From Elusimicrobia bacterium HGW-Elusimicrobia-1 (GTDB lineage: Bacteria > Elusimicrobiota > Endomicrobiia > PHAN01), in assembly GCA_002841695.1 (NCBI GenBank), contig PHAN01000003.1:164849-228848 (forward strand): 64,000 bases of DNA, in the 5' to 3' direction. Under the pieces are notes generated by a model that saw nothing but the letters and a program-made list of their open reading frames with translations, searched no databases and was not told the DNA's origin. The position numbers were made by a program, and so were the translations under genes. Shown piece after piece: positions 1,894-42,383 of the stretch (within the stretch, counting starts at the first letter, position 1; every line of letters begins with the position of its first letter).

Positions 1894-3435
1894 ATGAGAG
1901 CGTTAAAGCTTTCAACGATAAACAGCTGTAAGCCCGGGCAATTGCGTTGCCGCGGGCTTTTTTATTTTGCGTCCGCGGCGTTTTTATCATCGATAATGAT
2001 TTTGTTTTTCTCCGATATACTTCTTGCAAAAACCTTCATCAGGGAACACTATTACCGCGCCGGGAAAAACGACACCGAAATCACTTCCCGGGCGATAGCG
2101 CTGCATCAGGTAAAGGCGCGGCTGCTCGAAGAAATCGGGACTTACATGGAAAGCACGTTTGAGAGCACGGAGCAGGAGGGCGGCGGTCTCGGCGGACAAT
2201 TCACGAAATATCAGATAGTAAGCATCACAGCGGGAATCACGGAGACAAAGATACTGGAAGAGCGGTGGGACGGTAAAATATATTATATAAAGGCCGAGAT
2301 AGACGTGGATATTGATGATACACGCCGTAAAATTCGGGAGATATCGCAGGATAGGGAACGGATGCGGGAAATAGAGGCGATAAACAGAAAAGCCGATGAG
2401 GCGCTAAGGCAGATAGAGATGCTGACAAAGTCAAAAAAAAGCATTCCGATAGAATACACCGGCAGCCATATTATGAAAGTGGATGGCCGCAAAGTAGTTA
2501 TCGGACTGGGCTTGCTCAACGGTGTCAGAAAAAGCCAACAATTCAAAATTATAAAATCCGACAGCAAGGTTAATCCGCGCACAGGTGTAATAGTACACAA
2601 AGAAACAGCCGTTATCGGGGCGCTTAAAGTTATAAATACCGACGAGTGGACTTCTGATTGCGTGGTGATTTCCGGCGCCGGACGTATAAAACCGGGTGAT
2701 TTGATCAGTCCTCGCGCAGAAAAGGGTATTATGGAAATTGAGGGCGCGCTGTCCAGAGCCGAACCGCTGGACGAATTTAAATTCCGCTTCAACTGGAAGT
2801 TTCCGTATTTATTCAGGATGGATTTGGGTTATCTCAGGCCGTATTTTATGGAAAGTTTCGGCGAGGCAGCATATTTGAATTTTTCTTTTGACTGGCCATG
2901 GTTTGAAATCGGCCCCGGTTTTGCGGGATTCTTTCGGTACGGTGTTCCGCTTTTCGGCGGAGCGTCGATTGTTATGAGGGTGGGCCCGTATGAAGGCCCG
3001 ATAAATATTATTTTGCGGCATAACGGTGGAAAATTTATAGGCGCCGATCCAAATCAAAGGATAAACGGATTGATAGAGACAAATTGGCGGATTTCCGGCC
3101 GTGTTTTGCTTTATGGCAGAATGCATCAATATAAAGGGTCGTGGCAGGCCGGTGAATTTTATCACGATGACAAAGGTTATCAATATAATACAAGAACTTA
3201 CGGTGGGGCGGAAATAGGTTCGGGGGATTTAAGCTTTTTTGTCCAATATGGAGATGTTTTTGAGTATTGCGCGCTCGGAAAAGACCCCCGAGTTGAGCGG
3301 AGAGGAGAATACGGTGGCGCCGGAATCAAGTTGAATATGACTCCGTTGAGATACACTTTTTCCGCCGAGGGGATAAGGGCGCTGGGCGACGACAGAAGTT
3401 TGATTTTGCGTCTGGGCATAGGTTATGAGTTTTAG
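1894..3435 (+). CDS. secreted coiled-coil / outer-membrane beta-barrel protein, paralog 1
   Basis: N-terminal signal peptide (RCRGLFYFASAAFLSSIMILFFSDILLA), a charged coiled-coil segment, then a Gly/Tyr-rich alternating-hydrophobic C-terminus ending '...LRLGIGYEF', an OMP C-terminal strand signature. The first ~170 aa are near-identical to ORF 4704..5777. Confidence 0.6.
   Translation: MRALKLSTINSCKPGQLRCRGLFYFASAAFLSSIMILFFSDILLAKTFIREHYYRAGKNDTEITSRAIALHQVKARLLEEIGTYMESTFESTEQEGGGLGGQFTKYQIVSITAGITETKILEERWDGKIYYIKAEIDVDIDDTRRKIREISQDRERMREIEAINRKADEALRQIEMLTKSKKSIPIEYTGSHIMKVDGRKVVIGLGLLNGVRKSQQFKIIKSDSKVNPRTGVIVHKETAVIGALKVINTDEWTSDCVVISGAGRIKPGDLISPRAEKGIMEIEGALSRAEPLDEFKFRFNWKFPYLFRMDLGYLRPYFMESFGEAAYLNFSFDWPWFEIGPGFAGFFRYGVPLFGGASIVMRVGPYEGPINIILRHNGGKFIGADPNQRINGLIETNWRISGRVLLYGRMHQYKGSWQAGEFYHDDKGYQYNTRTYGGAEIGSGDLSFFVQYGDVFEYCALGKDPRVERRGEYGGAGIKLNMTPLRYTFSAEGIRALGDDRSLILRLGIGYEF
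1930..1968 (+). terminator. intrinsic-terminator-like hairpin + T-tract embedded in codons 13-25 of paralog 1
   Basis: AAGCCCGGGCAA-TTGCG-TTGCCGCGGGCTT followed by TTTTTTATTTT. The stem is conserved, with compensatory changes, in copies at 4740-4778, 8002-8040 and 14690-14727. Confidence 0.4.
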
Positions 3436-3588: not shown

Positions 3589-3918
3589 ATGCTTGAATCC
3601 ATCCTCGGCAACAAGACGGTCGAAAAAATACTCCTTTATCTTGAGCGCTATGGGCAGGGTTATCCGCAAAGCATCGCGCAACTGTTCGGCGTCAGCTTAA
3701 ACGGCATTCAACAGCAGTTAAAACGCCTGGAAAACGGCGGCGTCATTTCGAGTAATCGTTACGGGAAACTGCGTCTGTACACATTTAATCCACGGTACTA
3801 CTTTTTGCCGGAGTTGCGCGCTATACTCAAAAAAGCCCTCGATGCTTTGCCCGAAGCGGAGATAAAAAAATACTACATGCTTCGCACCCGCCCGCGCAGG
3901 AGCGGTAAACCTTTGTGA
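3589..3918 (+). CDS. winged-helix DNA-binding protein (putative regulator/antitoxin)
   Basis: 'KTVEKILLYLERYGQGYPQSIAQLFGVSLNGIQQQLKRLENGGVI' is a wHTH (ArsR/MarR-like) pattern. Its stop overlaps the start of the next gene (GTGA). Confidence 0.5.
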   Translation: MLESILGNKTVEKILLYLERYGQGYPQSIAQLFGVSLNGIQQQLKRLENGGVISSNRYGKLRLYTFNPRYYFLPELRAILKKALDALPEAEIKKYYMLRTRPRRSGKPL

Positions 3919-4528: not shown

Positions 4529-4597
4529 GTGGTTTTCGTATGAATTTTGTATGGATTACTCGTGGTTTTCGTGTGGTCTTCGTGTGGTATTTTATAG
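4529..4597. repeat. phased 11-bp repeats (GTGGTTTTCGT-like) upstream of paralog-2 promoter
   Basis: gtggttttcgt at 4529, then gtggttttcgt, gtggtcttcgt and gtggtatttta in perfect 11-bp register at 4562-4594. Confidence 0.6.
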
Positions 4598-4634
4598 TTG
4601 ATTCCGGGCGGATTAAGCCGTGTTTAGCATTGAT

Positions 4635-4663
4635 TTGAATCCACCCGTCCGAAAATGTATACT
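4635..4663 (+). promoter_or_regulatory. sigma70-type promoter TTGAAT-17-TGn-TATACT for paralog 2
   Basis: -35 ttgaat at 4635-4640, a 17-nt spacer ending in TG, and -10 tatact at 4658-4663. The ATG at 4704 follows an RBS-like 'agaggggt'. Confidence 0.55.
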
Positions 4664-4703
4664 CTGAAAAGATGAAACAGAAACAGTAACACAGAGGGGT
4701 AAA

Positions 4704-5777
4704 ATGAGAGCATCAAAGCTTTCAACGGCAAATAATCGGCAGCCCGGGCGTTTACTGCGCCGCGGGCTTTTTTATTTTGCGCCCGCGGCGTTTTTATCGT
4801 CGATGATGATTCTGTTTTTCTCCCAAGCGCTTCTTGCAAAAACATTTATAAGGGAACACTATTATCGCGCCGGCAAGCAGGATACCCAATTGACCGCCCG
4901 GGCAATTGCATTGCATCAGGTTAAGTCGCGTCTGATCGAGGAGGTCGGCACTTATATAGAAAGCGCATTTGAAAGCACGGAACGAGAAAGCAAAGCCGGG
5001 AGCGAACAATTCACGAAGCATCAGATAGTAAGCATAACCGCGGGAATCACGGAAACAAAGATACTGGAAGAGAAATGGGACGGTAAGACCTATTACATAA
5101 AAGCAGAAATTGAAGTCGACGTCGACGACACGAAGCGGCGGATAACGGAGATATCCGGCGACAGAAGCAAGATGAGAGAGATAGAAGAGATAAACCGAAA
5201 GGCCGACGATGCTTTGCGGGAAATAGAAGCGCTCAAAAAATCAAGCGGCTTACCGAAACGCGGCGGCGGTGCGTTTTATGTCGGATTGGATCTGCCCGGT
5301 ACATTCAAGGAAAACTACAGTATCGGCACATACAGCGGTGAACGACCCGTCGATTCCGGAGCCGGGGTTGCAATCGGATGGGAATACGAGGGACGCGGCG
5401 TTCCCTTGGGACTTGGTTTCGGAGCTTTTTACCAGTTGCCGAGGACGCTGACTTTTAGCGGCTCGGCTACTATCGGTTTTTCGCCGCTATATCTCCTGGG
5501 GCATTATTATGTAAACGACTTCACTTATATCATAGGTCGATTGGGATACAGTATGTATTACAGTAAAAATTTCACCACATACGCGAGCTACGCGGGCGGG
5601 TTGTATTATGCCTTCGGGCTGGGAATAAAAACGCAGGGATTCACTCTTTCCGGGGTTTACAGCGTCAATAAAAGCGAGGGCTCGGGGTTTAGCGATGTGT
5701 GGCTTTTGCCCCGCGGACCCATTTCAGGGACATTAACATACTCTCAGATTTCCATTCTCTTTAAATTATATATCTGA
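4704..5777 (+). CDS. secreted coiled-coil / outer-membrane beta-barrel protein, paralog 2
   Basis: The N-terminal ~170 aa are highly similar to paralog 1 ('MRASKLST...RRGLFYFAPAAFLSSMMILFF...KTFIREHYYRAGK...'). The C-terminus is a different Gly/Tyr-rich beta-strand region. Confidence 0.6.
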   Translation: MRASKLSTANNRQPGRLLRRGLFYFAPAAFLSSMMILFFSQALLAKTFIREHYYRAGKQDTQLTARAIALHQVKSRLIEEVGTYIESAFESTERESKAGSEQFTKHQIVSITAGITETKILEEKWDGKTYYIKAEIEVDVDDTKRRITEISGDRSKMREIEEINRKADDALREIEALKKSSGLPKRGGGAFYVGLDLPGTFKENYSIGTYSGERPVDSGAGVAIGWEYEGRGVPLGLGFGAFYQLPRTLTFSGSATIGFSPLYLLGHYYVNDFTYIIGRLGYSMYYSKNFTTYASYAGGLYYAFGLGIKTQGFTLSGVYSVNKSEGSGFSDVWLLPRGPISGTLTYSQISILFKLYI

Positions 5778-5877: not shown

Positions 5878-6585
5878 ATGATATCATTCATCGTCCCCGC
5901 CCACAATGAAGAGCGATTGCTTCCCGCCACGCTTCAAGCGATTGGCGAAGCGGCCAAGTCCGTTGGCGAACCGTACGAAGTCATCGTAGTTGACGACGCT
6001 TCGACGGACGCCACGTCCGATGTCGCCCGCAAGTGCGGCGCGAAGGTCGTCCGCATAGAGCGACGTCAAATCGCCTCGGCCCGCAACGCGGGAGCGCGCG
6101 AATCATCGGGCGAACGGCTCTTTTTCGTCGACGCCGACACCCTCATAACCTCCGATGTCCTTGGCGCCGCCATGCGCGCGATGGATTCCGGCGCCGTCGG
6201 CGGCGGCGCGACGGCCCGAATGGACGGCCGCCTGCCTCTTTACGCCCGCGCGATGCTTTCCGCGAGCATGCCGCTTTTCAGGATGCTGCGACTTGCTCCG
6301 GGATGTTTCGTGTTTTGCACCCGCAGGGCCTTCGAGGCGTCCGGCGGCTTCGACGAGCGCTACTACGCCGCCGAAGACATCGTCGTCAGTAACGCCCTCA
6401 AGCGCCAAGGCCGTTTCGTGATTTTGCGCGAGCATGTCGTCACGTCCGGAAGAAAAGCCCGCGCCAACAACTTATTCGACCTGTCGCGCCTGCTCGTCCG
6501 TCTGCTTCGTTATGGTCTCAAGTCCCGCAAGGCGCTCGGCTTCTGGTACGAAAAAAGGACGGATGATACGGAATTGCGCGGGTGA
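5878..6585 (+). CDS. family 2 glycosyltransferase
   Basis: 'ISFIVPAHNEERLL...VIVVDDASTDAT' is the GT2 N-terminal signature, with a DxD-like 'FVDADT'. Confidence 0.7.
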   Translation: MISFIVPAHNEERLLPATLQAIGEAAKSVGEPYEVIVVDDASTDATSDVARKCGAKVVRIERRQIASARNAGARESSGERLFFVDADTLITSDVLGAAMRAMDSGAVGGGATARMDGRLPLYARAMLSASMPLFRMLRLAPGCFVFCTRRAFEASGGFDERYYAAEDIVVSNALKRQGRFVILREHVVTSGRKARANNLFDLSRLLVRLLRYGLKSRKALGFWYEKRTDDTELRG

Positions 6586-7255: not shown

Positions 7256-7657
7256 ATGAAAACAAGAATGGGTTTGTGGATTGACCACAGAAAAGCCGTC
7301 ATCGTGGCCGTTACGGACAAAGGGGAAGACACAATACTGATATTGTCGAAAGTGGAAAAGCATCTCCAGCGTTCCGGCGATTCGTCCCGCAAAGGTTATG
7401 CATCGCGGCAGGCGCCCGCGTCCGATAGTCGCCAGAGAATGTTTACAGGGCATATCAACGTTTACTACGATGCTATAATTGCGTGTCTTCGCGCCGCGGA
7501 ATCCATTCTGATATTTGGTCCCGGCGAGGCAAAAGGCGAACTGAAAAAACGTCTTATAAAAAGTAAACTGGGCGGACGCATCGCAGGGGTTGAAGCAGTC
7601 GGCAATATGACGGATAACCAGATTGTGGCTAAGGTTCGCCGGCGCTTCGCTAAGTAG
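7256..7657 (+). CDS. hypothetical protein
   Basis: RBS 'aaggagag' 7 nt upstream; sits 11 nt after the previous gene. Confidence 0.45.
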   Translation: MKTRMGLWIDHRKAVIVAVTDKGEDTILILSKVEKHLQRSGDSSRKGYASRQAPASDSRQRMFTGHINVYYDAIIACLRAAESILIFGPGEAKGELKKRLIKSKLGGRIAGVEAVGNMTDNQIVAKVRRRFAK

Positions 7658-7770
7658 CGTTTGGCAATGTGGGTCGAGGCGGAATCATCCCGGGAAGTCG
7701 GATTGGTGAGAAGATAGGCCGCTAAAAATCGCGAAGTTTTTATGTAAACGATAAATACCCCGAATTTCGC

Positions 7771-7870
7771 GTGGTTTTTTAGTGGTTTTCGAGTGGTTGC
7801 CCCAGTGGTTTTCGTGTGGTTTTTGTGTGGCGTTCGGGTGGTGATTTATAGTGGATTTGGGGTGGTTTTG
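7771..7870. repeat. array of ~9 phased GTGG(T)TTT-N repeats (period 11-13 bp) upstream of the copy-3 promoter
   Basis: gtggtttttta / gtggttttcga / gtggttgcccca / gtggttttcgt / gtggtttttgt / gtggcgttcgg / gtggtgatttata / gtggatttgggg / tggttttg. Confidence 0.6.
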
Positions 7871-7895
7871 AAGCTAAAAAATAGCTAAGAATGGC

Positions 7896-7924
7896 TTGAA
7901 TTACGGTCACTGAAAATGTATACT
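7896..7924 (+). promoter_or_regulatory. sigma70-type promoter TTGAAT-17-TGn-TATACT (copy 3)
   Basis: ttgaat at 7896-7901, 17-nt spacer, tatact at 7919-7924. Same architecture as 4635-4663. Confidence 0.55.
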
Positions 7925-7965
7925 CTGAAAAGATAAAGCAATAAAATATCACAGCGGGGTCCGAT

Positions 7966-8043
7966 GAGAGCATCAAAGCTTTCAACGGGGGGAATTGTAA
8001 TCGCCCGGGCGTCTATTGGCGCCTCGGGCTTTTTTATTTTATG
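7966..8043 (+). pseudogene. truncated third copy of the paralog leader (26 codons), ends ATGA-overlapping the HNH gene
   Basis: 'MRASKLSTGGIVIARASIGASGFFIL*' aligns to paralogs 1 and 2 through the hairpin/T-tract (8002-8040). Similarity stops exactly after 'ttttttatttt' at 8040, where 'atgattaaaccc' begins. Confidence 0.55.
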
Positions 8044-8736
8044 ATTAAACCCGGCGATGTAATTTCTTATCAAACTATGTGTCAGGAAGAAAAATTTAGT
8101 TTACAAAAAGGTATGAATTATCACCTCGCACCTGGCTATAGTGTCATTTTGATGAGCACACAAACTGGTGCGCCATATTCAGATCGCGTCGAGGGTAATG
8201 GTAAAACGCTTATTTATGAGGGGCATGACATCCCTAAAACCAAAGGGGTCGATGATCCGAAAAAATATGATCAGCCTATGAAAAATCCAAGCGGGTCATT
8301 GACGCAAAATGGAATGTTTTTTAAGGCGGCTGGCGAGTATAAAAAGAACGCCAAAAGTCCAGAACTCGTTAAGGTTTATGAAAAAATCAGGCCTGGTATT
8401 TGGGCATACAATGGATTGTTTGAGCTTCAAGATGCTTGGATGGAAAGTGATGGCCGCCGTGACGTGTTTAAGTTTAAATTGGCAATCACGGACGAATCAC
8501 TAAGTGAAAAGAATGCTGAGCAGTCAGATATTGATCATACTCGTATAATTCCGTCGGAAGTCAAGCGTATAGTTTGGGCACGTGATAAGGGTAAGTGTGT
8601 CGAGTGTGGTGCGGTCGATAATCTTCATTTTGACCATATTATTCCTTACAGTAAAGGTGGCTCTTCGCGCGACGCAGAAAATATCCAACTTCTTTGCGCG
8701 AGACATAATTTGGCAAAGAGGGATAGGATTGGATAA
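8041..8736 (+). CDS. SRA-like domain + HNH endonuclease (putative modification-dependent type IV restriction nuclease)
   Basis: C-terminal HNH ('CVECGAVDNLHFDHIIPYSKGG...NIQLLCARHN'). The N-terminus 'GDVISYQTM...HLAPGYSVILMS...LIYEGHD...DQ...N' resembles the SRA/YDG base-flipping pattern (G.H..GI...A.SIVLSG...YTGSGG). Confidence 0.55.
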   Translation: MIKPGDVISYQTMCQEEKFSLQKGMNYHLAPGYSVILMSTQTGAPYSDRVEGNGKTLIYEGHDIPKTKGVDDPKKYDQPMKNPSGSLTQNGMFFKAAGEYKKNAKSPELVKVYEKIRPGIWAYNGLFELQDAWMESDGRRDVFKFKLAITDESLSEKNAEQSDIDHTRIIPSEVKRIVWARDKGKCVECGAVDNLHFDHIIPYSKGGSSRDAENIQLLCARHNLAKRDRIG

Positions 8737-8752
8737 TATCAGAGGGCTTGCT

Positions 8753-9151
8753 ATGAATATTTCCGAGTTTATTAGGTTCGACAATCTTGTTTTGTTGCCA
8801 GCTTTGCTGGCTGTATTGAAGAAGTTTTATGACGCGGCTTTGAGGTATCAGACGTATCATTTCAAGGAATATTTTCTGGTCCCCACGCGTTTCGAGCGGT
8901 GGCTTATGCATGTTGGATTGCTCGGCATGTGTTTTTGTATCTGTTTTTCGTTTACTGCAAAGAGTATTCTTGTGTTGCGTGAGTATATGTGGTTTATCCA
9001 ATTTATTTGCGTTTGTGCGCTTAATGTTGCTGTTATAAGTTGTTCTGTGATGCCTCCGCTTAGGGCTGGCAAAAGTGAATTTAAAATAATTTACAGTCGC
9101 AATATTCTGAGGGGTAAATATTATAATAAAAATGGGGGACTGTTTTTCTGA
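8753..9151 (+). CDS. hypothetical small hydrophobic protein (AT-rich)
   Basis: Hydrophobic segments (LLPALLAVL, GLLGMCFCICFSF). The track ORF starts at 8582 inside the HNH gene; the ATG at 8753 follows 'agaggg'. A competing antisense ORF exists. Confidence 0.3.
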   Translation: MNISEFIRFDNLVLLPALLAVLKKFYDAALRYQTYHFKEYFLVPTRFERWLMHVGLLGMCFCICFSFTAKSILVLREYMWFIQFICVCALNVAVISCSVMPPLRAGKSEFKIIYSRNILRGKYYNKNGGLFF

Positions 9152-9247
9152 GAGAGTGGGGGGGGAGACGCTAAACCACAACCCACGGCTCGGTTTTGTA
9201 ACTGTGGTGTTGTCGCTTGAATCGGGGCTGTTGAATGTGGAGGCAAT

Positions 9248-9784
9248 ATGTCAAAAAAGCAAATCGTAAAATCATCCCGCCCACCGGTTTTCGCCGCAAT
9301 AGATTTTGAAACTGCCGACTATTGGCACGACAGCGCGTGCTCTGTGGCTGTAGTGCGGGTGGAAGACAATAAGATTGTCGAGCGCGTCCATCACTACATC
9401 CGCCCCCCGCGCCAGGAATTTGTTTTTACGCACGTGCACGGTATCACGTGGGAAGATGTGGTCGATGCTCCCAAATTCTCTCAGATATGGCCCGACTTGC
9501 ACAAAGTAATTTCAGGCGTTGAGTTTCTTGCGGCGCACAACGCCCCTTTTGATCGTGCGGTGCTCGATAAATGTTGTAGTAAGGCGAATTTTAAACTGCC
9601 CGATGTTCCGTTTCAATGCACTATGCGTCTTGCCAGAGAGATTTGGGGGCTAAGGCCGACTAAATTATCCGATGTCTGCGCGCATTTAGACATACCGTTG
9701 CAACATCATAACGCTAAATCTGATGCCGAGGCGTGCGCAAAGATTGTGATCGCAGCCATGAAAGCAGGCGCGTCTTTGTCTTAG
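9248..9784 (+). CDS. DEDDh 3'-5' exonuclease (DnaQ/epsilon-like)
   Basis: Exo I 'AIDFETAD', Exo II 'HNAPFDRAVL' and Exo III 'HNAKSDAEACAKI' motifs. RBS 'ggagg' upstream. Confidence 0.7.
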   Translation: MSKKQIVKSSRPPVFAAIDFETADYWHDSACSVAVVRVEDNKIVERVHHYIRPPRQEFVFTHVHGITWEDVVDAPKFSQIWPDLHKVISGVEFLAAHNAPFDRAVLDKCCSKANFKLPDVPFQCTMRLAREIWGLRPTKLSDVCAHLDIPLQHHNAKSDAEACAKIVIAAMKAGASLS

Positions 9785-9832
9785 TAGATTTTTTGGGGGG
9801 CGGGTATTTTTGAAGGGAACAATCCTAAAAAC

Positions 9833-10288
9833 TCAACCTATCAGCCACGCCTCGCCGGTGGGTTTGCGGGGCTGGCGCTTGAAACCTTTCGTAGATTTTA
9901 CGGAGAGTTTTACTTTTGATTCGGCTTTCTGAGAAAATCCTTCGGTGTGAGATGATACCATCGCCTCGAACGCGTTTATCACGGCGAGGCGTTTTTTATC
10001 GTTCAGACGTTCAAGTCGTCGCCACATGGCCAGCCATCGCGTCAGACCCGGTTTGGGCGGATTCGGTAAATATCCTTCTTCATCGCCGGCAAATACTCCG
10101 AAGTCCGCGTTCAACGCCCGTGCCATTTTTGCTACCGTCACAATCGACGGCTTTTTGACGCCGCGCTCGACGTCGCTTATAAACTTCGCCGAAACGCCCG
10201 ACGCTTCGGATAGTTTTTCTTGAGTGATTCCGGCCTCTTCTCTCCGTGCTCTGAGCGTTTGCGCCACGTTTTTGTAGATTTTTTCCAT
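9833..10288 (-). CDS. XRE-family HTH transcriptional regulator
   Basis: 'LRARREEAGITQEKLSEASGVSAKFISDVERGVKKPSIVTVAKMARAL' is a classic Cro/C1 HTH. Confidence 0.7.
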   Translation of the reverse strand: MEKIYKNVAQTLRARREEAGITQEKLSEASGVSAKFISDVERGVKKPSIVTVAKMARALNADFGVFAGDEEGYLPNPPKPGLTRWLAMWRRLERLNDKKRLAVINAFEAMVSSHTEGFSQKAESKVKLSVKSTKGFKRQPRKPTGEAWLIG

Positions 10289-10464
10289 AAGTCAAATCCC
10301 GCCTTTGCGCTCGCCTTGCGGTTCACGCTTTAGGGCGATTATTTTACAATATCCCCGCCGCGTCACACTACCACCTAAAAGGCGTATTAAATATCGCCTT
10401 ATGGCTTGACTTTGCCCTCTTGATTTTCTATAATCTACGTAAATCCAGCAAGGGAGGGAAAGTC

Positions 10465-10884
10465 ATGAAAAAAGTTTTTACCCCATTGGTTTTGTTGATA
10501 CTTGTAGGTTTTATCGGATGCGCCACTGCCCCCGTCTGGCGGCCGCTTTTCCCGCCCGAATATAAAGTAAGCAAGGATTTTGACAAGGTTTGGCCCAAAA
10601 TAGTCGCCGCTATTTCGGAAGATTTCGATATTGCAATACTGGAAAAAGAATCTGGATACCTACAAACTAACTGGAAGGAAAAACGAGGTTTTCTCGGAGC
10701 CAAGGAAACAAGAACAAGGGTTTCCGTCAGGACTCAGAAGAAAACTGCCCCGCTTGAGATTGATGTCCGTGCCGAGAAACAGGGTTGGGAATCGTGGACG
10801 GAACAATGGATAGATAAGGGCAATGACGTTGACCTCGAAGAAAAAGTGCGTAATGCTGTTGCGCGGAAATTGATGGGCGACTGA
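10465..10884 (+). CDS. lipoprotein, unknown function
   Basis: 'MKKVFTPLVLLILVGFIGC' has a signal peptide and lipobox Cys. RBS 'gggaggg'. The track ORF starts earlier, at 10420. Confidence 0.5.
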   Translation: MKKVFTPLVLLILVGFIGCATAPVWRPLFPPEYKVSKDFDKVWPKIVAAISEDFDIAILEKESGYLQTNWKEKRGFLGAKETRTRVSVRTQKKTAPLEIDVRAEKQGWESWTEQWIDKGNDVDLEEKVRNAVARKLMGD

Positions 10885-14579: not shown

Positions 14580-14608
14580 TTGACACGCCCCGACCAGATT
14601 TGTAGAAT
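14580..14608 (+). promoter_or_regulatory. sigma70 promoter TTGACA-17-TGn-TAGAAT
   Basis: ttgaca at 14580-14585, 17-nt spacer, tgtagaat at 14601-14608. It drives a ~110-nt unit ending at the 14690-14727 terminator. Confidence 0.5.
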
Positions 14609-14689
14609 TATCTCGTATGAAGTAAATGGTCATGCGGGGGTTGGATGAAAGTTTGTATGCTTTCGGGGAAAAACGGTTCAAAAAAATGA

Positions 14690-14727
14690 CAGCCCGTGCG
14701 GCTTTCTGCCGCCGCGGGCTTTTTTGG
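14690..14727 (+). terminator. rho-independent terminator (4th copy of the leader hairpin family)
   Basis: AGCCCGTGCGGC-TTTCT-GCCGCCGCGGGCT followed by TTTTTT. Sequence-similar to the hairpins at 4740-4778 and 8002-8040. Confidence 0.6.
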
Positions 14728-14827
14728 TTTACGGTTGAACCATGATTGGTTGGAGTATTGCACGGAAAGTAGCAGTTCGTCTTTGCTGCTTACGCGGATA
14801 GTATAGTATTTGTGTGGTGGTAATGGA

Positions 14828-15289
14828 ATGATAACAGCAGAATCAAAATTACGCGTTGCTGTAAAAACCCTTCAGAGTGCTAGAAAAAAACTCCACGCCG
14901 ATTTCCCAGAATGGAATTTCACTCTCGACGGCAAGCTTATTGGTGACATTGGCGAAGCATACGCAAAAGCACATTTTAGCCTTGTAAAAATAGATAGTAA
15001 TAGTAAAGCTCACGACTTTAAGGCGCCCGACGGACGTCTTGTACAGGTCAAAATTACCCAAAAAAAGACATTGGGACTGGGGATCTCTGCTCCTACCTTC
15101 GACTATTTTATAGCTCTTTGCTTGAGTGAAAATGGAGATTTCCAAGTCGTTTACAATGGCAAAGGTTCTAGAGTGTATAAGCGTAAAGGGCACCCCCCGA
15201 AAAAATCCATTTCTGTAATAAAACTGAAAGAATTAAATAAGCAGGTGGATAAATCGGAAACAATTCCCAGTAAGCAGAACACCAAATAA
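14828..15289 (+). CDS. small PD-(D/E)xK-like nuclease-fold protein (cargo gene A)
   Basis: 'GDIGEAYAKAHF' is a helix with a conserved Glu; 'AHDFKAPDGRLVQVKI' gives D...QVK, a PD-(D/E/Q)xK-like arrangement. Alternative start at 14810. Confidence 0.3.
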   Translation: MITAESKLRVAVKTLQSARKKLHADFPEWNFTLDGKLIGDIGEAYAKAHFSLVKIDSNSKAHDFKAPDGRLVQVKITQKKTLGLGISAPTFDYFIALCLSENGDFQVVYNGKGSRVYKRKGHPPKKSISVIKLKELNKQVDKSETIPSKQNTK

Positions 15290-19946: not shown

Positions 19947-21197
19947 TTGAGGGGGTATATTATGAGATTATTCAAAAAATGTTCTCATTGCCGGAGCCAG
20001 TTCGCGGCGACGAAGATAACCGCTGCCGCCGAAGCGGCCAAATGCCCCAAGTGCGGGGCGTCTCTTCGCGGTGCCCAGTGGTATATCGACTACTACGTGG
20101 GCTACGAGCGTAAGAGAGAGGCCGTCGGCACACAAAAGCGTTTCGCCGAGGAAGTCATAGCCAAGCGCCGCATCGAGATAAAAGAGGGGAAGTTCTTTGA
20201 CAGAAAAAAAGAGAGCGTGCACAGATTAAAAGAAATCCTCGACGACTTTCTGGCGTATTCCAAAACCAACAAGAAATCCTATGAGCGCGACATCGGACTC
20301 GTCAAGCAGCTTCTGACTTACTTCGACGGCTCCAAGCGCCTTGAGGCGGTAACGCCGATCCTCATCGAACAATACAAAGGCAAACGCCTCAACGCCGACG
20401 GAAGAAAGCCCGCGACGGTAAACCGCGAACTCGCCTGCCTCAAGTGCGCTTTCAACTGGGCGATAAAAAACGCCAAGGCGTCGGCGAACCCCGTGCGAAG
20501 CGTCAAACTCTTGAAAGAAAACAATATGCGCTTGCGCTATCTCTCGCAAGAAGAAATCGGACGGCTTCTTAACGCCTGTCCGACGACGATAAGGCGCATC
20601 GTGACCGCCGCGCTTCACACCGGAATGCGCCTGGGGGAAATACTTCCTCTCAAATGGGAAGACATTGATTTCGCTCAGAATATCATCATCCTCAAAAATA
20701 CCAAAAGCGGCCGGATGAGAGAAATCCCGATAAACGGGGTTTTGCGCAAAACGCTCAATGAGTGCCGCAAAAACACGGATGAAGTCCACGTCTTCTGCAA
20801 CGAATCGGGCGTGCCTTATCGCAGTATCAATAGCATGTTCCAGCGCATAATCAAGAAAGCGGGCATTGCCGATTTCCGGTTCCACGATTTGCGCCATACG
20901 GCGGCATCATACATGGTCATGTTGGGCATACAACTTGCCACCGTAAGGGAGATTTTGGGCCATCAGAGCATCAATATGACGCTCAGGTATGCCCACCTGT
21001 CTCAGGAGCACAAACTCACGGCAATGGAGATGTTGGGGACGCGACTCGACACCCTTTCGACACCCCGACCCCCCGATGGCCAAAACACCCGAAAAGAGGG
21101 TGATGAGAAAAGTATTGATATTTCAGCATTTTTGAGTAATCTGGAGAGGTCGCCTAGTGGTTTAGGGCGGCGGTTTGCTAAACCGCTGTCCCGCTAA
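19947..21197 (+). CDS. int: tyrosine recombinase (phage-type integrase), C-terminal tail reads into tRNA-Ser
   Basis: Catalytic-domain motifs 'RLGEILPLKWEDIDF', 'HDLRHTAASYMVMLG' and 'LGHQSINMTLRYAHL'. N-terminal zinc ribbon (CSHCRS...CPKCG). The last ~18 codons (stop at 21195-21197) are tRNA sequence. Confidence 0.8.
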   Translation: MRGYIMRLFKKCSHCRSQFAATKITAAAEAAKCPKCGASLRGAQWYIDYYVGYERKREAVGTQKRFAEEVIAKRRIEIKEGKFFDRKKESVHRLKEILDDFLAYSKTNKKSYERDIGLVKQLLTYFDGSKRLEAVTPILIEQYKGKRLNADGRKPATVNRELACLKCAFNWAIKNAKASANPVRSVKLLKENNMRLRYLSQEEIGRLLNACPTTIRRIVTAALHTGMRLGEILPLKWEDIDFAQNIIILKNTKSGRMREIPINGVLRKTLNECRKNTDEVHVFCNESGVPYRSINSMFQRIIKKAGIADFRFHDLRHTAASYMVMLGIQLATVREILGHQSINMTLRYAHLSQEHKLTAMEMLGTRLDTLSTPRPPDGQNTRKEGDEKSIDISAFLSNLERSPSGLGRRFAKPLSR

Positions 21198-21231
21198 AGC
21201 GGGACCGGGGGTTCGAATCCCCCCCTCTCCG
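21143..21231 (+). tRNA. tRNA-Ser (anticodon GCU), long variable arm
   Basis: Acceptor GGAGAGG/CCTCTCC. Anticodon loop TT-GCT-AA in stem GCGGCGG/ACCGCT. Long variable arm GTCCCGCTAAAGCGGGAC. T-arm GGGGGTTCGAATCCCCC. Discriminator G. Confidence 0.8.
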
Positions 21232-40697: not shown

Positions 40698-41920
40698 TGC
40701 CATCCTGCCCCTGCCCGTTTCTGCAATCCCTTTTTGCCGAGTGCCCCGGGTTTTTTGTTTCAAAAGCCCGCAACCTCGCAAAATGTATCTTTTGTAAGTA
40801 CGTGTTGCGCGTCTCCATAAGTCCCCCTGTGTCCCCCTTTATTAAAGGGGGACACAGGGGGATTTTTTGTCACCCCGTCACTTTTTCACTGTTTTTTTCT
40901 TTTTCTATTTTCTATTTTCTATTTAGCACTCACGCTCTTTTCGCCGCATCTCCGCCGTCGTCGCACAAGATAATATGGGGCGACACTCTTGCCGCGATAT
41001 CCGCCCGCCATTACGGCTCGGCGCGGTTCTATCCGGCCATAGCCGCCGCCAATAAAATATCCAACCCTCATTTGATAATCGTCGGAGGTATTTTGATACT
41101 TCCGGACATTTCCGAGTTGGAAGCGGTCGCTGCCGCCGCCTCGCCCCCTGACATTACCCCGCCGATACCAATTGTTCAAGTCGCTCCGTGTACGCCAGAT
41201 GCCGTCGTTGTTTCGTCGGAGACGCCGAGCGCTTTTATCTGGCGCAAAGTCGACAATTCGGCTTTTGCCGTCGGCGAACATTTGACTTTTGAAATCAAGT
41301 GGCAGTTTATCACGGCGGGAATTGCCGTTATGAATGTAGACCGGATTGTTCCTGCGCCATCCGCTCCCGAACGGCTGTCTTACAAAATAGTCACCGAAGC
41401 CCGCTCCACGCCCTTTATCGACGGATTCTTTAAAGTCCGCGACACCAACATATCCTATATCGACGTGGAAAGTATTTGTTCGCACTCTATAGAATCCGAT
41501 ATCTCCGAGGGCAATTTCCGCAAAAAAGAACAAATAATATTCGATCAGGCAAATAACGCTTTTGCCCTCTCCGACGGCAGAACCGGCCCGACCGGACCAT
41601 GGGTGCAGGACGTTTTGAGCGCCCTTTACTATGTCCGGCTGCTTCCTCTTGAGCCCGGCGCGCAGTTTTCTTTTCCCGCCCATTCCGGAGATACGACATA
41701 TCCATTGTCCGTCAGAGTACTGGGCAGAGAGAAGGTTCGCGTTCCGGCCGGCGAGTTTGACTGTTTTAAGCTTGAACCGGCGTTGAGGGGAGACGGCGTG
41801 TTTAAGGCGAAAGGCCGGCTTTGGGTGTGGGTTACAGCCGACGCAAGACGAATGCCCGTCCTTATGAAGTCGCAGGTTTTCATCGGCTCTGTCGACGCGG
41901 TGCTTAGGGAATACAGATAA
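40670..41920 (+). CDS. LysM-domain secreted protein with DUF3108-like C-terminal region; start uncertain
   Basis: LysM: 'HKIIWGDTLAAISARHYGSARFYPAIAAANKISNPHLIIVGGILILP'. A hydrophobic signal-like segment precedes it. No ATG/GTG/TTG lies in frame between the hairpin and the LysM domain; the only canonical starts are at 40670 or GTG/TTG at 40794/40797. Confidence 0.5.
   Translation: MDNRSNDTMMPSCPCPFLQSLFAECPGFFVSKARNLAKCIFCKYVLRVSISPPVSPFIKGGHRGIFCHPVTFSLFFSFSIFYFLFSTHALFAASPPSSHKIIWGDTLAAISARHYGSARFYPAIAAANKISNPHLIIVGGILILPDISELEAVAAAASPPDITPPIPIVQVAPCTPDAVVVSSETPSAFIWRKVDNSAFAVGEHLTFEIKWQFITAGIAVMNVDRIVPAPSAPERLSYKIVTEARSTPFIDGFFKVRDTNISYIDVESICSHSIESDISEGNFRKKEQIIFDQANNAFALSDGRTGPTGPWVQDVLSALYYVRLLPLEPGAQFSFPAHSGDTTYPLSVRVLGREKVRVPAGEFDCFKLEPALRGDGVFKAKGRLWVWVTADARRMPVLMKSQVFIGSVDAVLREYR
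40823..40868 (+). terminator. perfect 18-bp palindrome hairpin + T-tract (terminator-like)
   Basis: ccccctgtgtcccccttt-att-aaagggggacacaggggg, followed by attttttg. Confidence 0.5.
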
Positions 41921-42137: not shown

Positions 42138-42383
42138 ATGAATACTGCTAAACTAACCGTTACTATTCCTTGTGATAAATATGAGAGGATAGAAAAAGAG
42201 AAAAAGCAAAAGGGTCTTAATAGAAGCGCTTTTGTTAATCTGATGATATCCTTTTTTTTCCAGGAAGAAGATGAGGCGGAGAAGGTTAAGAGATATATAT
42301 CCGGCTATAAGAAAAAACCCGAGGACATAAAGAAAATAGCCGCCTTTGAAAATATCCAGTCAAAATCATTGGGGGAATTTTAG
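42138..42383 (+). CDS. mazE: ribbon-helix-helix antitoxin (MazE/CopG-like)
   Basis: 'KLTVTIPCDKYERIEKEKKQKGLNRSAFVNLMI' has the RHH beta-strand and helices. RBS 'ggagg'. Confidence 0.6.
   Translation: MNTAKLTVTIPCDKYERIEKEKKQKGLNRSAFVNLMISFFFQEEDEAEKVKRYISGYKKKPEDIKKIAAFENIQSKSLGEF

Follow-up and report, generated by a model that had tools for sequence, protein, structure and literature searches.

A duplicated 5' expression cassette with a probable ribosome-dependent attenuator in front of an SRA-HNH nuclease gene in an Elusimicrobia defence island

How the output of self-toxic, horizontally acquired nucleases is kept at a safe level is, to our knowledge, poorly known outside restriction–modification (R-M) systems controlled by C proteins. 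The 64 kb stretch of Elusimicrobia DNA analysed here (the window) presents a concrete case in a little-studied phylum, in that a type IV restriction gene is joined to a leader ORF with an embedded terminator, and one and the same leader is put to two uses, 5' of the nuclease gene and, in frame, in genes for secreted proteins. The question that the locus raises is what this leader does and how it came to end exactly where the nuclease gene begins. The first-pass annotation had seen here the remains of a third secreted-protein paralog, recently cut off at its T-tract by an incoming nuclease gene. The explanation that we favour, and consider somewhat better than an even prospect, is that positions 7771–8040 constitute a duplicated, selectively maintained 5' expression cassette with a probable ribosome-dependent attenuator, situated in a defence island. 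The cassette is a candidate new leader/attenuator motif, so far with six copies in one Elusimicrobia lineage.

The left 21 kb of the window is a tRNA-linked defence island, as is evident from a tyrosine integrase gene (19947 to about 21100) adjoining a tRNA (21143–21231) and from neighbourhood genes for a DpnII-type R-M system, Mrr, a DEDDh exonuclease, DUF6998 and DUF1848. HTH proteins of the island are encoded at 3589–3918 and 9833–10288. Independent JGI and ENA assemblies are identical across the locus, which is therefore not an assembly artefact. The gene at the centre of this study (8041–8736, forward strand) encodes a full-length SRA-HNH protein of 231 aa, a predicted modification-dependent nuclease, so assigned from a Pfam HNH match and from an SRA fold detected with AF2 and Foldseek. 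Its homologues, more than 5900 in number and about 230 aa long, occur across bacteria and archaea and have the N-terminal sequence MIKPGDVISY, MVKPGDVISY or similar. As they share both this length and this N terminus, the nuclease gene has its authentic start at ATG 8041 and is complete. The annotation that the nuclease gene begins at the junction was therefore correct. Pfam HNH was matched at 1.1e-8, above the cutoff, and 26 homologues have the motif ...DNLHFDHIIPYSKGG...NIQLLCARHN without variation. The AF2 model has a pLDDT of 73.6, and a Foldseek comparison of its N-terminal domain with the PDB returned SRA domains at probability 1.0 (SUVH5, ScoMcrA, AspBHI and UHRF1), MspJI being matched as well; the match to the SUVH5 SRA domain had an E value of 2e-6 and a TM score (target) of 0.64–0.70. 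On this modelled structure, the N-terminal domain is of the SRA (PUA-like) fold and the SRA-HNH assignment holds.

An SRA-HNH class of 5mC-dependent nucleases has been described (PMC4333417, PMC6212794). The window protein shares with the SRA-HNH enzymes TagI, ScoA3IV/Sco5333 and TbiR51I the N-terminal SRA fold and the C-terminal HNH motif, but differs from them in being a distant relation whose Pfam SAD_SRA match (3.8e-6, 27.2 bits) falls below the gathering score of 30.7. The distance from characterised members follows from a phmmer search of all PDB chains (E≤0.01), which recovered no SRA-HNH structure and only the HNH motif of IscB. The nuclease gene stands directly behind the leader promoter, as had been noted, and has no Shine–Dalgarno (SD) sequence and no evident promoter of its own. 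We know of no described SRA-HNH enzyme that has been reported with a comparable leader. Three gene callers mis-started the gene, giving products of 207, 218 and 219 aa, probably on account of the missing SD.

The cassette in front of the nuclease gene, which we refer to as copy 3, lies on the forward strand and opens with an 11-bp-phased array of about nine GTGGTTTTCGT-like units (7771–7875) located 5' of the −35 hexamer. A sigma-70-like promoter, TTGAAT-17 nt-TATACT (7896–7924), is predicted from its hexamers; an extended −10 reading of it was withdrawn, the TG being off by one position. The leader module itself (7925–8040) consists of a 5'UTR of about 33 nt with the SD (GGGG) included, an AUG, a hairpin around the start codon (P1), a linker, a terminator hairpin and a T-tract. 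P1 (7961–7988) pairs 7965–7971 with 7978–7984 and has a CCG/CGG extension, so that a core of 7 bp becomes 7–10 bp when the extension is counted, and the AUG is partly inside it. The leader ORF of 26 codons (MRASKLSTGGIVIARASIGASGFFIL*, 7964–8044) begins at ATG 7964, contains a conserved G6 run (7987–7992), traverses the terminator and ends with a TGA (8042–8044) which overlaps the nuclease ATG (8041–8043) to give ATGA. The coordinates thus confirm the stop/start overlap reported in the first-pass annotation; the leader placed there is likewise a real element, but the start given for it, 7966, is 2 nt inside the ATG. The intrinsic-terminator-like element (8003–8040) has a 10-bp GC stem with one bulge; TTTTTTATTTT (8030–8040) comes directly after the hairpin (8003–8029), whose predicted energy is −21.5 kcal/mol, and the distance from the predicted transcription start to the end of the terminator is about 110 nt.

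Three further copies are found in the window, all on the forward strand. Copies 1 and 2 repeat the order promoter, leader, hairpin and T-tract. Copy 1 (1856–1968) is an in-frame fusion to a 513-aa paralog (1894–3435) and copy 2 (4664–4778) to a 357-aa paralog (4704–5777). Upstream of the latter are a promoter (4635–4663) and an 11-bp array (4529–4625) that is common to copies 2 and 3, which share about 190 bp of upstream region. In the family to which the paralogs belong, a signal peptide is combined with a conserved domain (AKTFIREY...) some 150 aa long, for which fusion to TPR repeats is the prevailing arrangement in other phyla. The signal peptides of the remaining family members are of ordinary short length, and the 25-codon N-terminal extension, which is the leader, occurs only in copies 1 and 2 and in L004 (75% identity), whose paralog cassette is flanked by a 34-bp direct repeat. 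Copy 4 (14580–14730) is diverged and free-standing. It comprises a promoter (TTGACA-17-TAGAAT, 14580–14608), a module match at 14603–14730 with an SD-like GGGGG and an AUG within a P1-like hairpin, a 14-codon upstream ORF (uORF; 14645–14689) that stops 2 nt 5' of the hairpin stem, the hairpin itself (14692–14719) and a T-tract (14720–14725). The encoded peptide, a hydrophilic 14-mer, is unrelated to the other leader peptides. Copy 4 is fused to no gene, the gene for a DUF6998 protein (14828–15289), which matches the PADLOC methyl-directed REase model, starting about 97 nt downstream. That this unfused copy ends at its own T-tract suggests that the T-tract is the natural 3' end of the module and not a point of truncation.

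A covariance model (R1) was built from five leaders, namely copies 1–3, L004 and L005, the last of which precedes a relative of the nuclease gene in the ENA hydrocarbon metagenome ERZ922794. These five score 105–124 bits (copy 3, 112 bits, E 1e-23) and copy 4 is matched over its full length at 34.8 bits (E ~1e-5), so that six copies are known in all, four of them in the 64 kb window. A covariance-model match at 42181–42259 (E 0.12) was rejected, as it lies inside a coding region. The hairpin pattern GCCCGGGC-N-CGGGCTTTT was observed three times against none expected (100 shuffles), and a custom scan of the 64 kb yielded only 15 strong hairpin-plus-T-tract sites, among the strongest of which rank the three leaders and the look-alike at 14692–14725. 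A similar canonical terminator is present between convergent genes at about 9963–10000. Exact-pattern scans for the leader found nothing relevant in metagenome, genome and viral contig collections, outside which the source contig evidently lies; the pattern match in metagenome contig L009 was dismissed as a chance match inside a coding region, and those in genome contigs L007 and L008 as having no covariance-model match. No other protein with an in-frame leader was recovered by a word-index search with 45-aa N-terminal alignment, and an exhaustive phmmer search returned only the query's own cluster and one spurious repeat protein. Rfam, at gathering score, matched nothing in the window except one tRNA elsewhere and, at E≤1, nothing over 7650–8150; on L004 and L005 its sole match was ctRNA_p42d (20 bits, E 0.51).

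Comparison of the copies indicates that RNA-level features, rather than the weakly conserved leader peptide, are what has been conserved. Pairing is seen in 99% of the 102 pair cells that the six copies provide, the covariation statistics being thin, as the copies come from three or four closely related lineages. P1 pairs in all six, with purine swaps only and pairing kept, and its extension has undergone a compensatory change in L005, from CCG/CGG to CCA/UGG. The terminator stems carry double changes at the top two pairs and have, in every copy, 10 bp, one bulge, a loop of 4–5 nt and an energy of −17 to −21.5 kcal/mol. The T-tract reads TTTTTTATTTT in copies 1–3 and L004, TTTTTTCTTTT in L005 and TTTTTTGGTTT in copy 4. 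An SD (GGGG/GAGGG) and a start codon are present in six of six, the latter ATG in all but L005, where it is GTG. The leader ORF runs through the hairpin in copies 1–3, L004 and L005, and the stop codon of copy 4, 2 nt short of the stem, is within ribosome-footprint range. The promoter hexamers and spacing of copy 3 recur in copy 2, L004 and L005, and its array persists in L005 in degenerate form (AGGnnnnnnnn, seven times). Between the paralogs, 4-fold sites are 83–86% identical over codons 1–47 as against 41–51% in the rest of the gene (p = 0.002–0.006), while amino-acid identity over codons 1–25 is only 60–68%. Blocks of identity between copies 2 and 3, which reside in the same genome, could be due to gene conversion rather than selection. 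An internal promoter-like site at 8016–8045 was rejected, its hexamer spacing not being kept (21 nt in L005).

Our proposal for the mechanism starts from the two settings in which the module occurs. In the two secreted-protein paralogs it makes up the first 25 codons, in frame, and at the SRA-HNH gene it is a separate uORF that stops on the nuclease start codon (AUGA). The U-tract would end most transcripts before the nuclease AUG is transcribed, and read-through would need a ribosome on the uORF close behind RNA polymerase, blocking the hairpin in an antitermination of the pyrBI/pyrL type. P1 would limit the frequency of such ribosome–polymerase coupling, and the terminating ribosome may reinitiate at the SD-less nuclease AUG. 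The nuclease, which is potentially self-toxic, would in consequence be produced at a low, gated level, under control shared with the paralogs through their common promoter region. It has been reported that terminators are efficient when they lie in the first 100 bp of a coding region, the first ribosome not yet having caught up, and that a ribosome close to the terminator represses termination (PMC4824070); the pyrL coupling provides a precedent for ribosome-mediated attenuation (PMC5021804).

Among the closest known parallels to the arrangement proposed here is pyrBI (pyrL) of E. coli, in which a leader ORF with an SD and an AUG likewise passes through a GC hairpin and U-tract just 5' of the gene. 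By analogy, a closely following ribosome would block the hairpin here too (PMC5021804), and the reported position effects of terminators would fit (PMC4824070). Unlike pyrBI, to which it has no sequence or Rfam relationship, the module has no U-rich UTP-sensing pause region, has its start codon in a hairpin, occurs in several copies in one island, and has an ORF whose stop overlaps the downstream start (AUGA) or which is fused in frame to a signal peptide. No U-rich tract at which polymerase might pause was found between P1 and the terminator, the linker being G/A-rich; a pause of another kind, not involving a U-run, is possible in the leader. With attenuators of the trp/his type the module has in common a leader peptide and an intrinsic terminator 5' of the regulated genes, but it differs from them in having no run of regulatory codons and, in the folds, no 2:3 antiterminator. 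An alternative antiterminator helix was not found in the folds of the leader either. A hairpin between the 3' arm of the terminator and GCGCCCGCGGCG after the T-tract in copies 1 and 2 was considered and rejected because it has not been kept in L004, and Ala codons probably account for its presence.

A bolder extension of the proposal, which we regard as doubtful, is that the whole forms an undescribed self-duplicating cassette (phased operator array, promoter, uORF and embedded attenuator) that defence-island genes have acquired by illegitimate T-tract joining, providing one translation-coupled switch for the SRA-HNH nuclease, possibly DUF6998, and secreted envelope proteins. The same 75 nt would then act either as the n-region of a signal peptide or as an out-of-frame uORF, and the G6 run might switch the uORF between coupled, uncoupled and fused states.

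The terminator might, however, act without any contribution from the ribosome, as a constitutive insulator or dampener. Leaky read-through would then supply the nuclease transcript, and the AU-rich U-tract would let its translation start independently. In favour of this are a strong stem, for which no antiterminator alternative was found, and the reported efficiency of terminators in the first 100 bp of an ORF (PMC4824070). Moreover, the nuclease homologues are generally SD-less behind AU-rich sequence, including those in unrelated contexts (L006, L010 and L012), so the U-tract may allow independent initiation and coupling may be dispensable. We nevertheless think this explanation unlikely. 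The leader ORF of the two nuclease-linked copies has kept its SD, its start codon (as ATG or GTG), its length of 26 codons and its frame, and an SD and start codon are retained in all six copies. The ORF of every copy, moreover, either crosses the hairpin or stops 2 nt before it, which a passive terminator would not need. This conserved ORF geometry is better accommodated by the attenuator cassette than by the passive terminator or by the two explanations in which the module is a small gene or a recombination site, considered below.

That the module is an independent small gene, for an sRNA or for a 26-aa hydrophobic peptide like a type I toxin, to which the nuclease gene is merely adjacent, we judge to be quite unlikely. 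In its favour, the module has all the elements of a gene in its own right (promoter, SD, AUG and terminator), copy 4 occurs by itself, the peptides of copy 3 and L005 are hydrophobic in their C-terminal half and the start codon is structured. There is a resemblance here to the type I toxins Ibs, ShoB and the Fst-like family, which have a hydrophobic peptide of about 26 aa, a structured start region and a terminator overlapping the 3' end of the ORF. In contrast to these toxins, however, the module peptide is not conserved among copies. Only 15 of 26 residues are identical between the window and L005, in which stems and spacing have been kept, copy 4 encodes an altogether different, hydrophilic peptide, and the ORF of copies 1 and 2 is the beginning of proteins of 357–513 aa. 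Nor was a conserved antisense promoter found at the module, a minus-strand promoter-like site at 8063–8036 not being conserved in L005 or L012, the closest relative of the nuclease gene. Mere adjacency also sits poorly with the exact, spacer-free conservation of the junction at the nuclease ATG and with the want of any other evident promoter for the nuclease gene.

The junction itself has to be considered in the light of the claim that the body of a third paralog was recently replaced at the T-tract by an incoming SRA-HNH gene, the leader being a leftover that now drives the nuclease. A good deal of the underlying description has been upheld. In a three-way alignment, copy 3 ceases to resemble copies 1 and 2 exactly after the T-tract, at 8040, and the homology boundary at 8040/8041, where similarity to the paralog leaders ends, is also where collinearity with L012 begins. 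The match had been described as nucleotide-for-nucleotide; this is so over the first 24 nt, in both arms of the stems and in the T-tract, but not for the rest of the leader, the leader ORF of copy 3 being 79% identical to that of copy 2 and 73% to that of copy 1. Copy 3 has two 1-nt insertions, one in the linker and one in the loop, and these extra bases put its ORF out of the paralog reading frame. Of the other two frames of ATGATTAAA, one has a TGA and one a TAA, so that a frameshifted leader ORF must stop no more than 7 nt from the nuclease ATG, and the ATGA overlap is thus partly forced; an unshifted ORF would be an in-frame fusion to the nuclease.

The recombination breakpoint proposed at 8040/8041 was confirmed by L012, a Logan contig from SRR29054604 whose nuclease is 90% identical to that of the window at the amino-acid level (4-fold sites, 66%). 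It is collinear with the window over 8040–10473 at 85% nucleotide identity, through the nuclease gene, a membrane-like ORF of 132 aa (8753–9151, forward strand; probably co-transcribed with the nuclease gene and absent from L005), the exonuclease and an XRE regulator. To the left of the nuclease ATG, L012 has no leader and carries instead a MazG-like gene that ends 11 nt upstream; a MazG homologue was not found elsewhere in the 64 kb window. From these sequences 8040/8041 is a true rearrangement boundary, of which the alternative state, in L012, is not an intact paralog.

The precise end of the paralog-leader similarity, the approximately 190 bp of upstream sequence in common with copy 2, the wide distribution of the nuclease family, its relatives at 68% identity without a leader, the GC content of 0.39–0.44 over 8041–9150 and the boundary marked by L012 all accord with replacement of a third paralog. 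It is made very unlikely, however, by L005, which has essentially the arrangement that the first-pass annotation had itself named as contradicting its reading. There the nuclease is 81% identical (amino acids), and promoter, 5'UTR, P1 and terminator are as in the window. The T-tract abuts the nuclease ATG without a spacer, and the two extra bases of copy 3 recur, and with them its 26-codon frame and ATGA overlap. When L005 is compared with the window, 4-fold sites in the nuclease gene are saturated (16 of 65 identical, 25%), as against 111 of 146 positions (76%) identical from promoter to T-tract (Fisher p = 3e-12), and similarity vanishes directly after the nuclease stop codon. The leader has therefore been kept while synonymous sites in the gene behind it became saturated, from which the leader–nuclease junction is, on the sequence comparison, old and maintained under purifying selection, and not the fresh scar of a broken gene. 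Furthermore, neither of the two relatives, L005 and L012, has an intact third paralog at the site, tblastn downstream of the junction found no paralog remnant beyond the leader in the window or in L005, and copy 4 stops at its T-tract without being fused to anything.

It is highly improbable that breakpoints fall at the hairpin because it is a target for recombination or insertion at the DNA level, whether attC-like, REP/IS200-type or Xer-like. The hairpin is an imperfect palindrome with an extrahelical base, breakpoints lie at its 3' side, the island has a tyrosine integrase and the L004 paralog cassette has a 34-bp direct repeat around it. A check of the hairpin for recombinase target features nevertheless found none, and no GTTRRRY-type core site was seen on reading the sequence. 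The hairpin has the make-up of a canonical intrinsic terminator, in that every copy has the sense orientation, keeps a constant spacing from the promoter, SD and AUG that precede it and runs into a U-tract. The annotated part of the window has no integron integrase or Y1 transposase, the single integrase being tRNA-adjacent and 12 kb away, and the breakpoint in L012, which has no hairpin, is set by the nuclease ATG.

As regards the history of the attenuator cassette, we propose that the fusion of leader and nuclease arose once, before the split of the window and L005 at the latest, through illegitimate joining where the T-tract ends, the donor being the 5' end of a paralog or a free-standing module. 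Ancient capture from a paralog 5' end is possible and compatible with the cassette explanation, and is distinct from the recent truncation considered above. Independent gains of the leader are excluded, as the window and L005 share the indels and a 23-nt block of the 5'UTR. With the nuclease genes related as ((window, L012), L005), a single loss of the leader in L012 would be the most parsimonious course, by a parsimony over three sequences. The idea that the 5' end of the nuclease gene in the window was imported from an L005-like donor was rejected, its first 100 nt being no closer to L005 than to L012. A breakpoint that falls exactly at a gene start can thus be old and selected rather than a fresh scar. 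The nuclease relatives at 68% identity (L006 and L010) have no module, nor does L011, a member of the paralog family in another Elusimicrobiota MAG, from which it follows that the module was added to two unrelated gene families in a lineage-specific manner.

The leader copy that abuts the SRA-HNH nuclease gene (copy 3) is a mosaic. When copy 3 (7913–7987) was compared with copy 2 of the same genome (4652–4727), the −10/start region (23 nt) was found to be identical, as were the first 24 nt of the leader ORF (uORF), and the 5′UTR/SD block, linker and indels of copy 3 are common to L005, the relative locus carrying the same leader–HNH junction. This pattern suggests that the copies have undergone gene conversion or have co-evolved with a shared factor. 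Within the uORF, both HNH-linked leaders have kept a homopolymeric tract of six G residues (window 7987–7992; L005 188–193) that is not present in the paralog-linked leaders. A tract of seven residues would bring the uORF into frame with the HNH gene and fuse the two, and a tract of five would place the uORF stop 2 nt 5′ of the terminator stem, as in copy 4. The G6 run is a possible slippage switch, though it is short for phase variation.

Upstream of the promoters, arrays of 7–9 units at exact 11-bp phase were identified directly 5′ of the −35 elements of copy 2 (window 4529–4625), copy 3 (window 7771–7875) and the L005 module (L005 1–95), and no such array is present upstream of copies 1 and 4. 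The unit is GTGGTTTTCGT-like in the window, whereas in L005 it is AGGnnnnnnnn. An oligomerising regulator may use these arrays as operators, or they may represent DNA that is intrinsically bent. The HNH homologues of L006, L010 and L012, relative loci at which the gene is found without the leader, all lack an SD and have AU-rich sequence upstream; in L012, which carries the closest HNH relative, 11 nt separate the ATG of HNH from the end of a MazG-like NTP pyrophosphohydrolase gene (L012 2–369). The start of this family is misplaced by gene callers, with calls of 207, 218 and 219 aa.

In L004, a relative locus with a leader–paralog arrangement, a direct repeat of approximately 34 bp (214–247 and 1550–1584) brackets the promoter–leader–paralog unit, so that the entire unit looks to have been inserted or duplicated there. 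The repeat matches the 3′-terminal part of the cupin gene lying upstream (..TTCAARATGATGCTGACGATGATAAGGTCGTAA), and the window contains a single occurrence of it, at 1820–1846. Directly 3′ of the T-tract, copies 1 (1969–1981) and 2 (4779–4791) both have GCG(Y)CCGCGGCG + TTTTTATC, which can pair with the terminator 3′ arm or make a second small terminator-like hairpin; this sequence is not kept in L004 (GCGGCGGCGGCG) and therefore probably arises incidentally from Ala codons. The glycosyltransferase-2 gene directly after paralog 2 (5878–6585) has a GC content of 0.60–0.68 against a background of 0.45–0.50 and was probably acquired separately.

Within 14580–15289, the free-standing copy 4 lies upstream of a gene for a DUF6998 protein. 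Among PADLOC models, this protein scores best against one for type II methyl-directed restriction enzymes (1.9e-7), so that candidate modification-dependent nucleases follow two of the four modules. A tyrosine integrase ORF adjoins a tRNA gene at 21143–21231 (window 19947–21231), and to the left of these are found R-M, Mrr, a TA-like pair, SRA-HNH, a DEDDh exonuclease, DUF6998 and DUF1848. All genes left of the integrase/tRNA look like a single tRNA-integrated defence island, with its other end beyond the window. By far the strongest terminator-like hairpin of the window is at 40823–40869, where TTTTTT comes after a perfect 19-bp inverted repeat (TCCCCCTGTGTCCCCCTTT ATT AAAGGGGGACACAGGGGGA; −39 kcal/mol).
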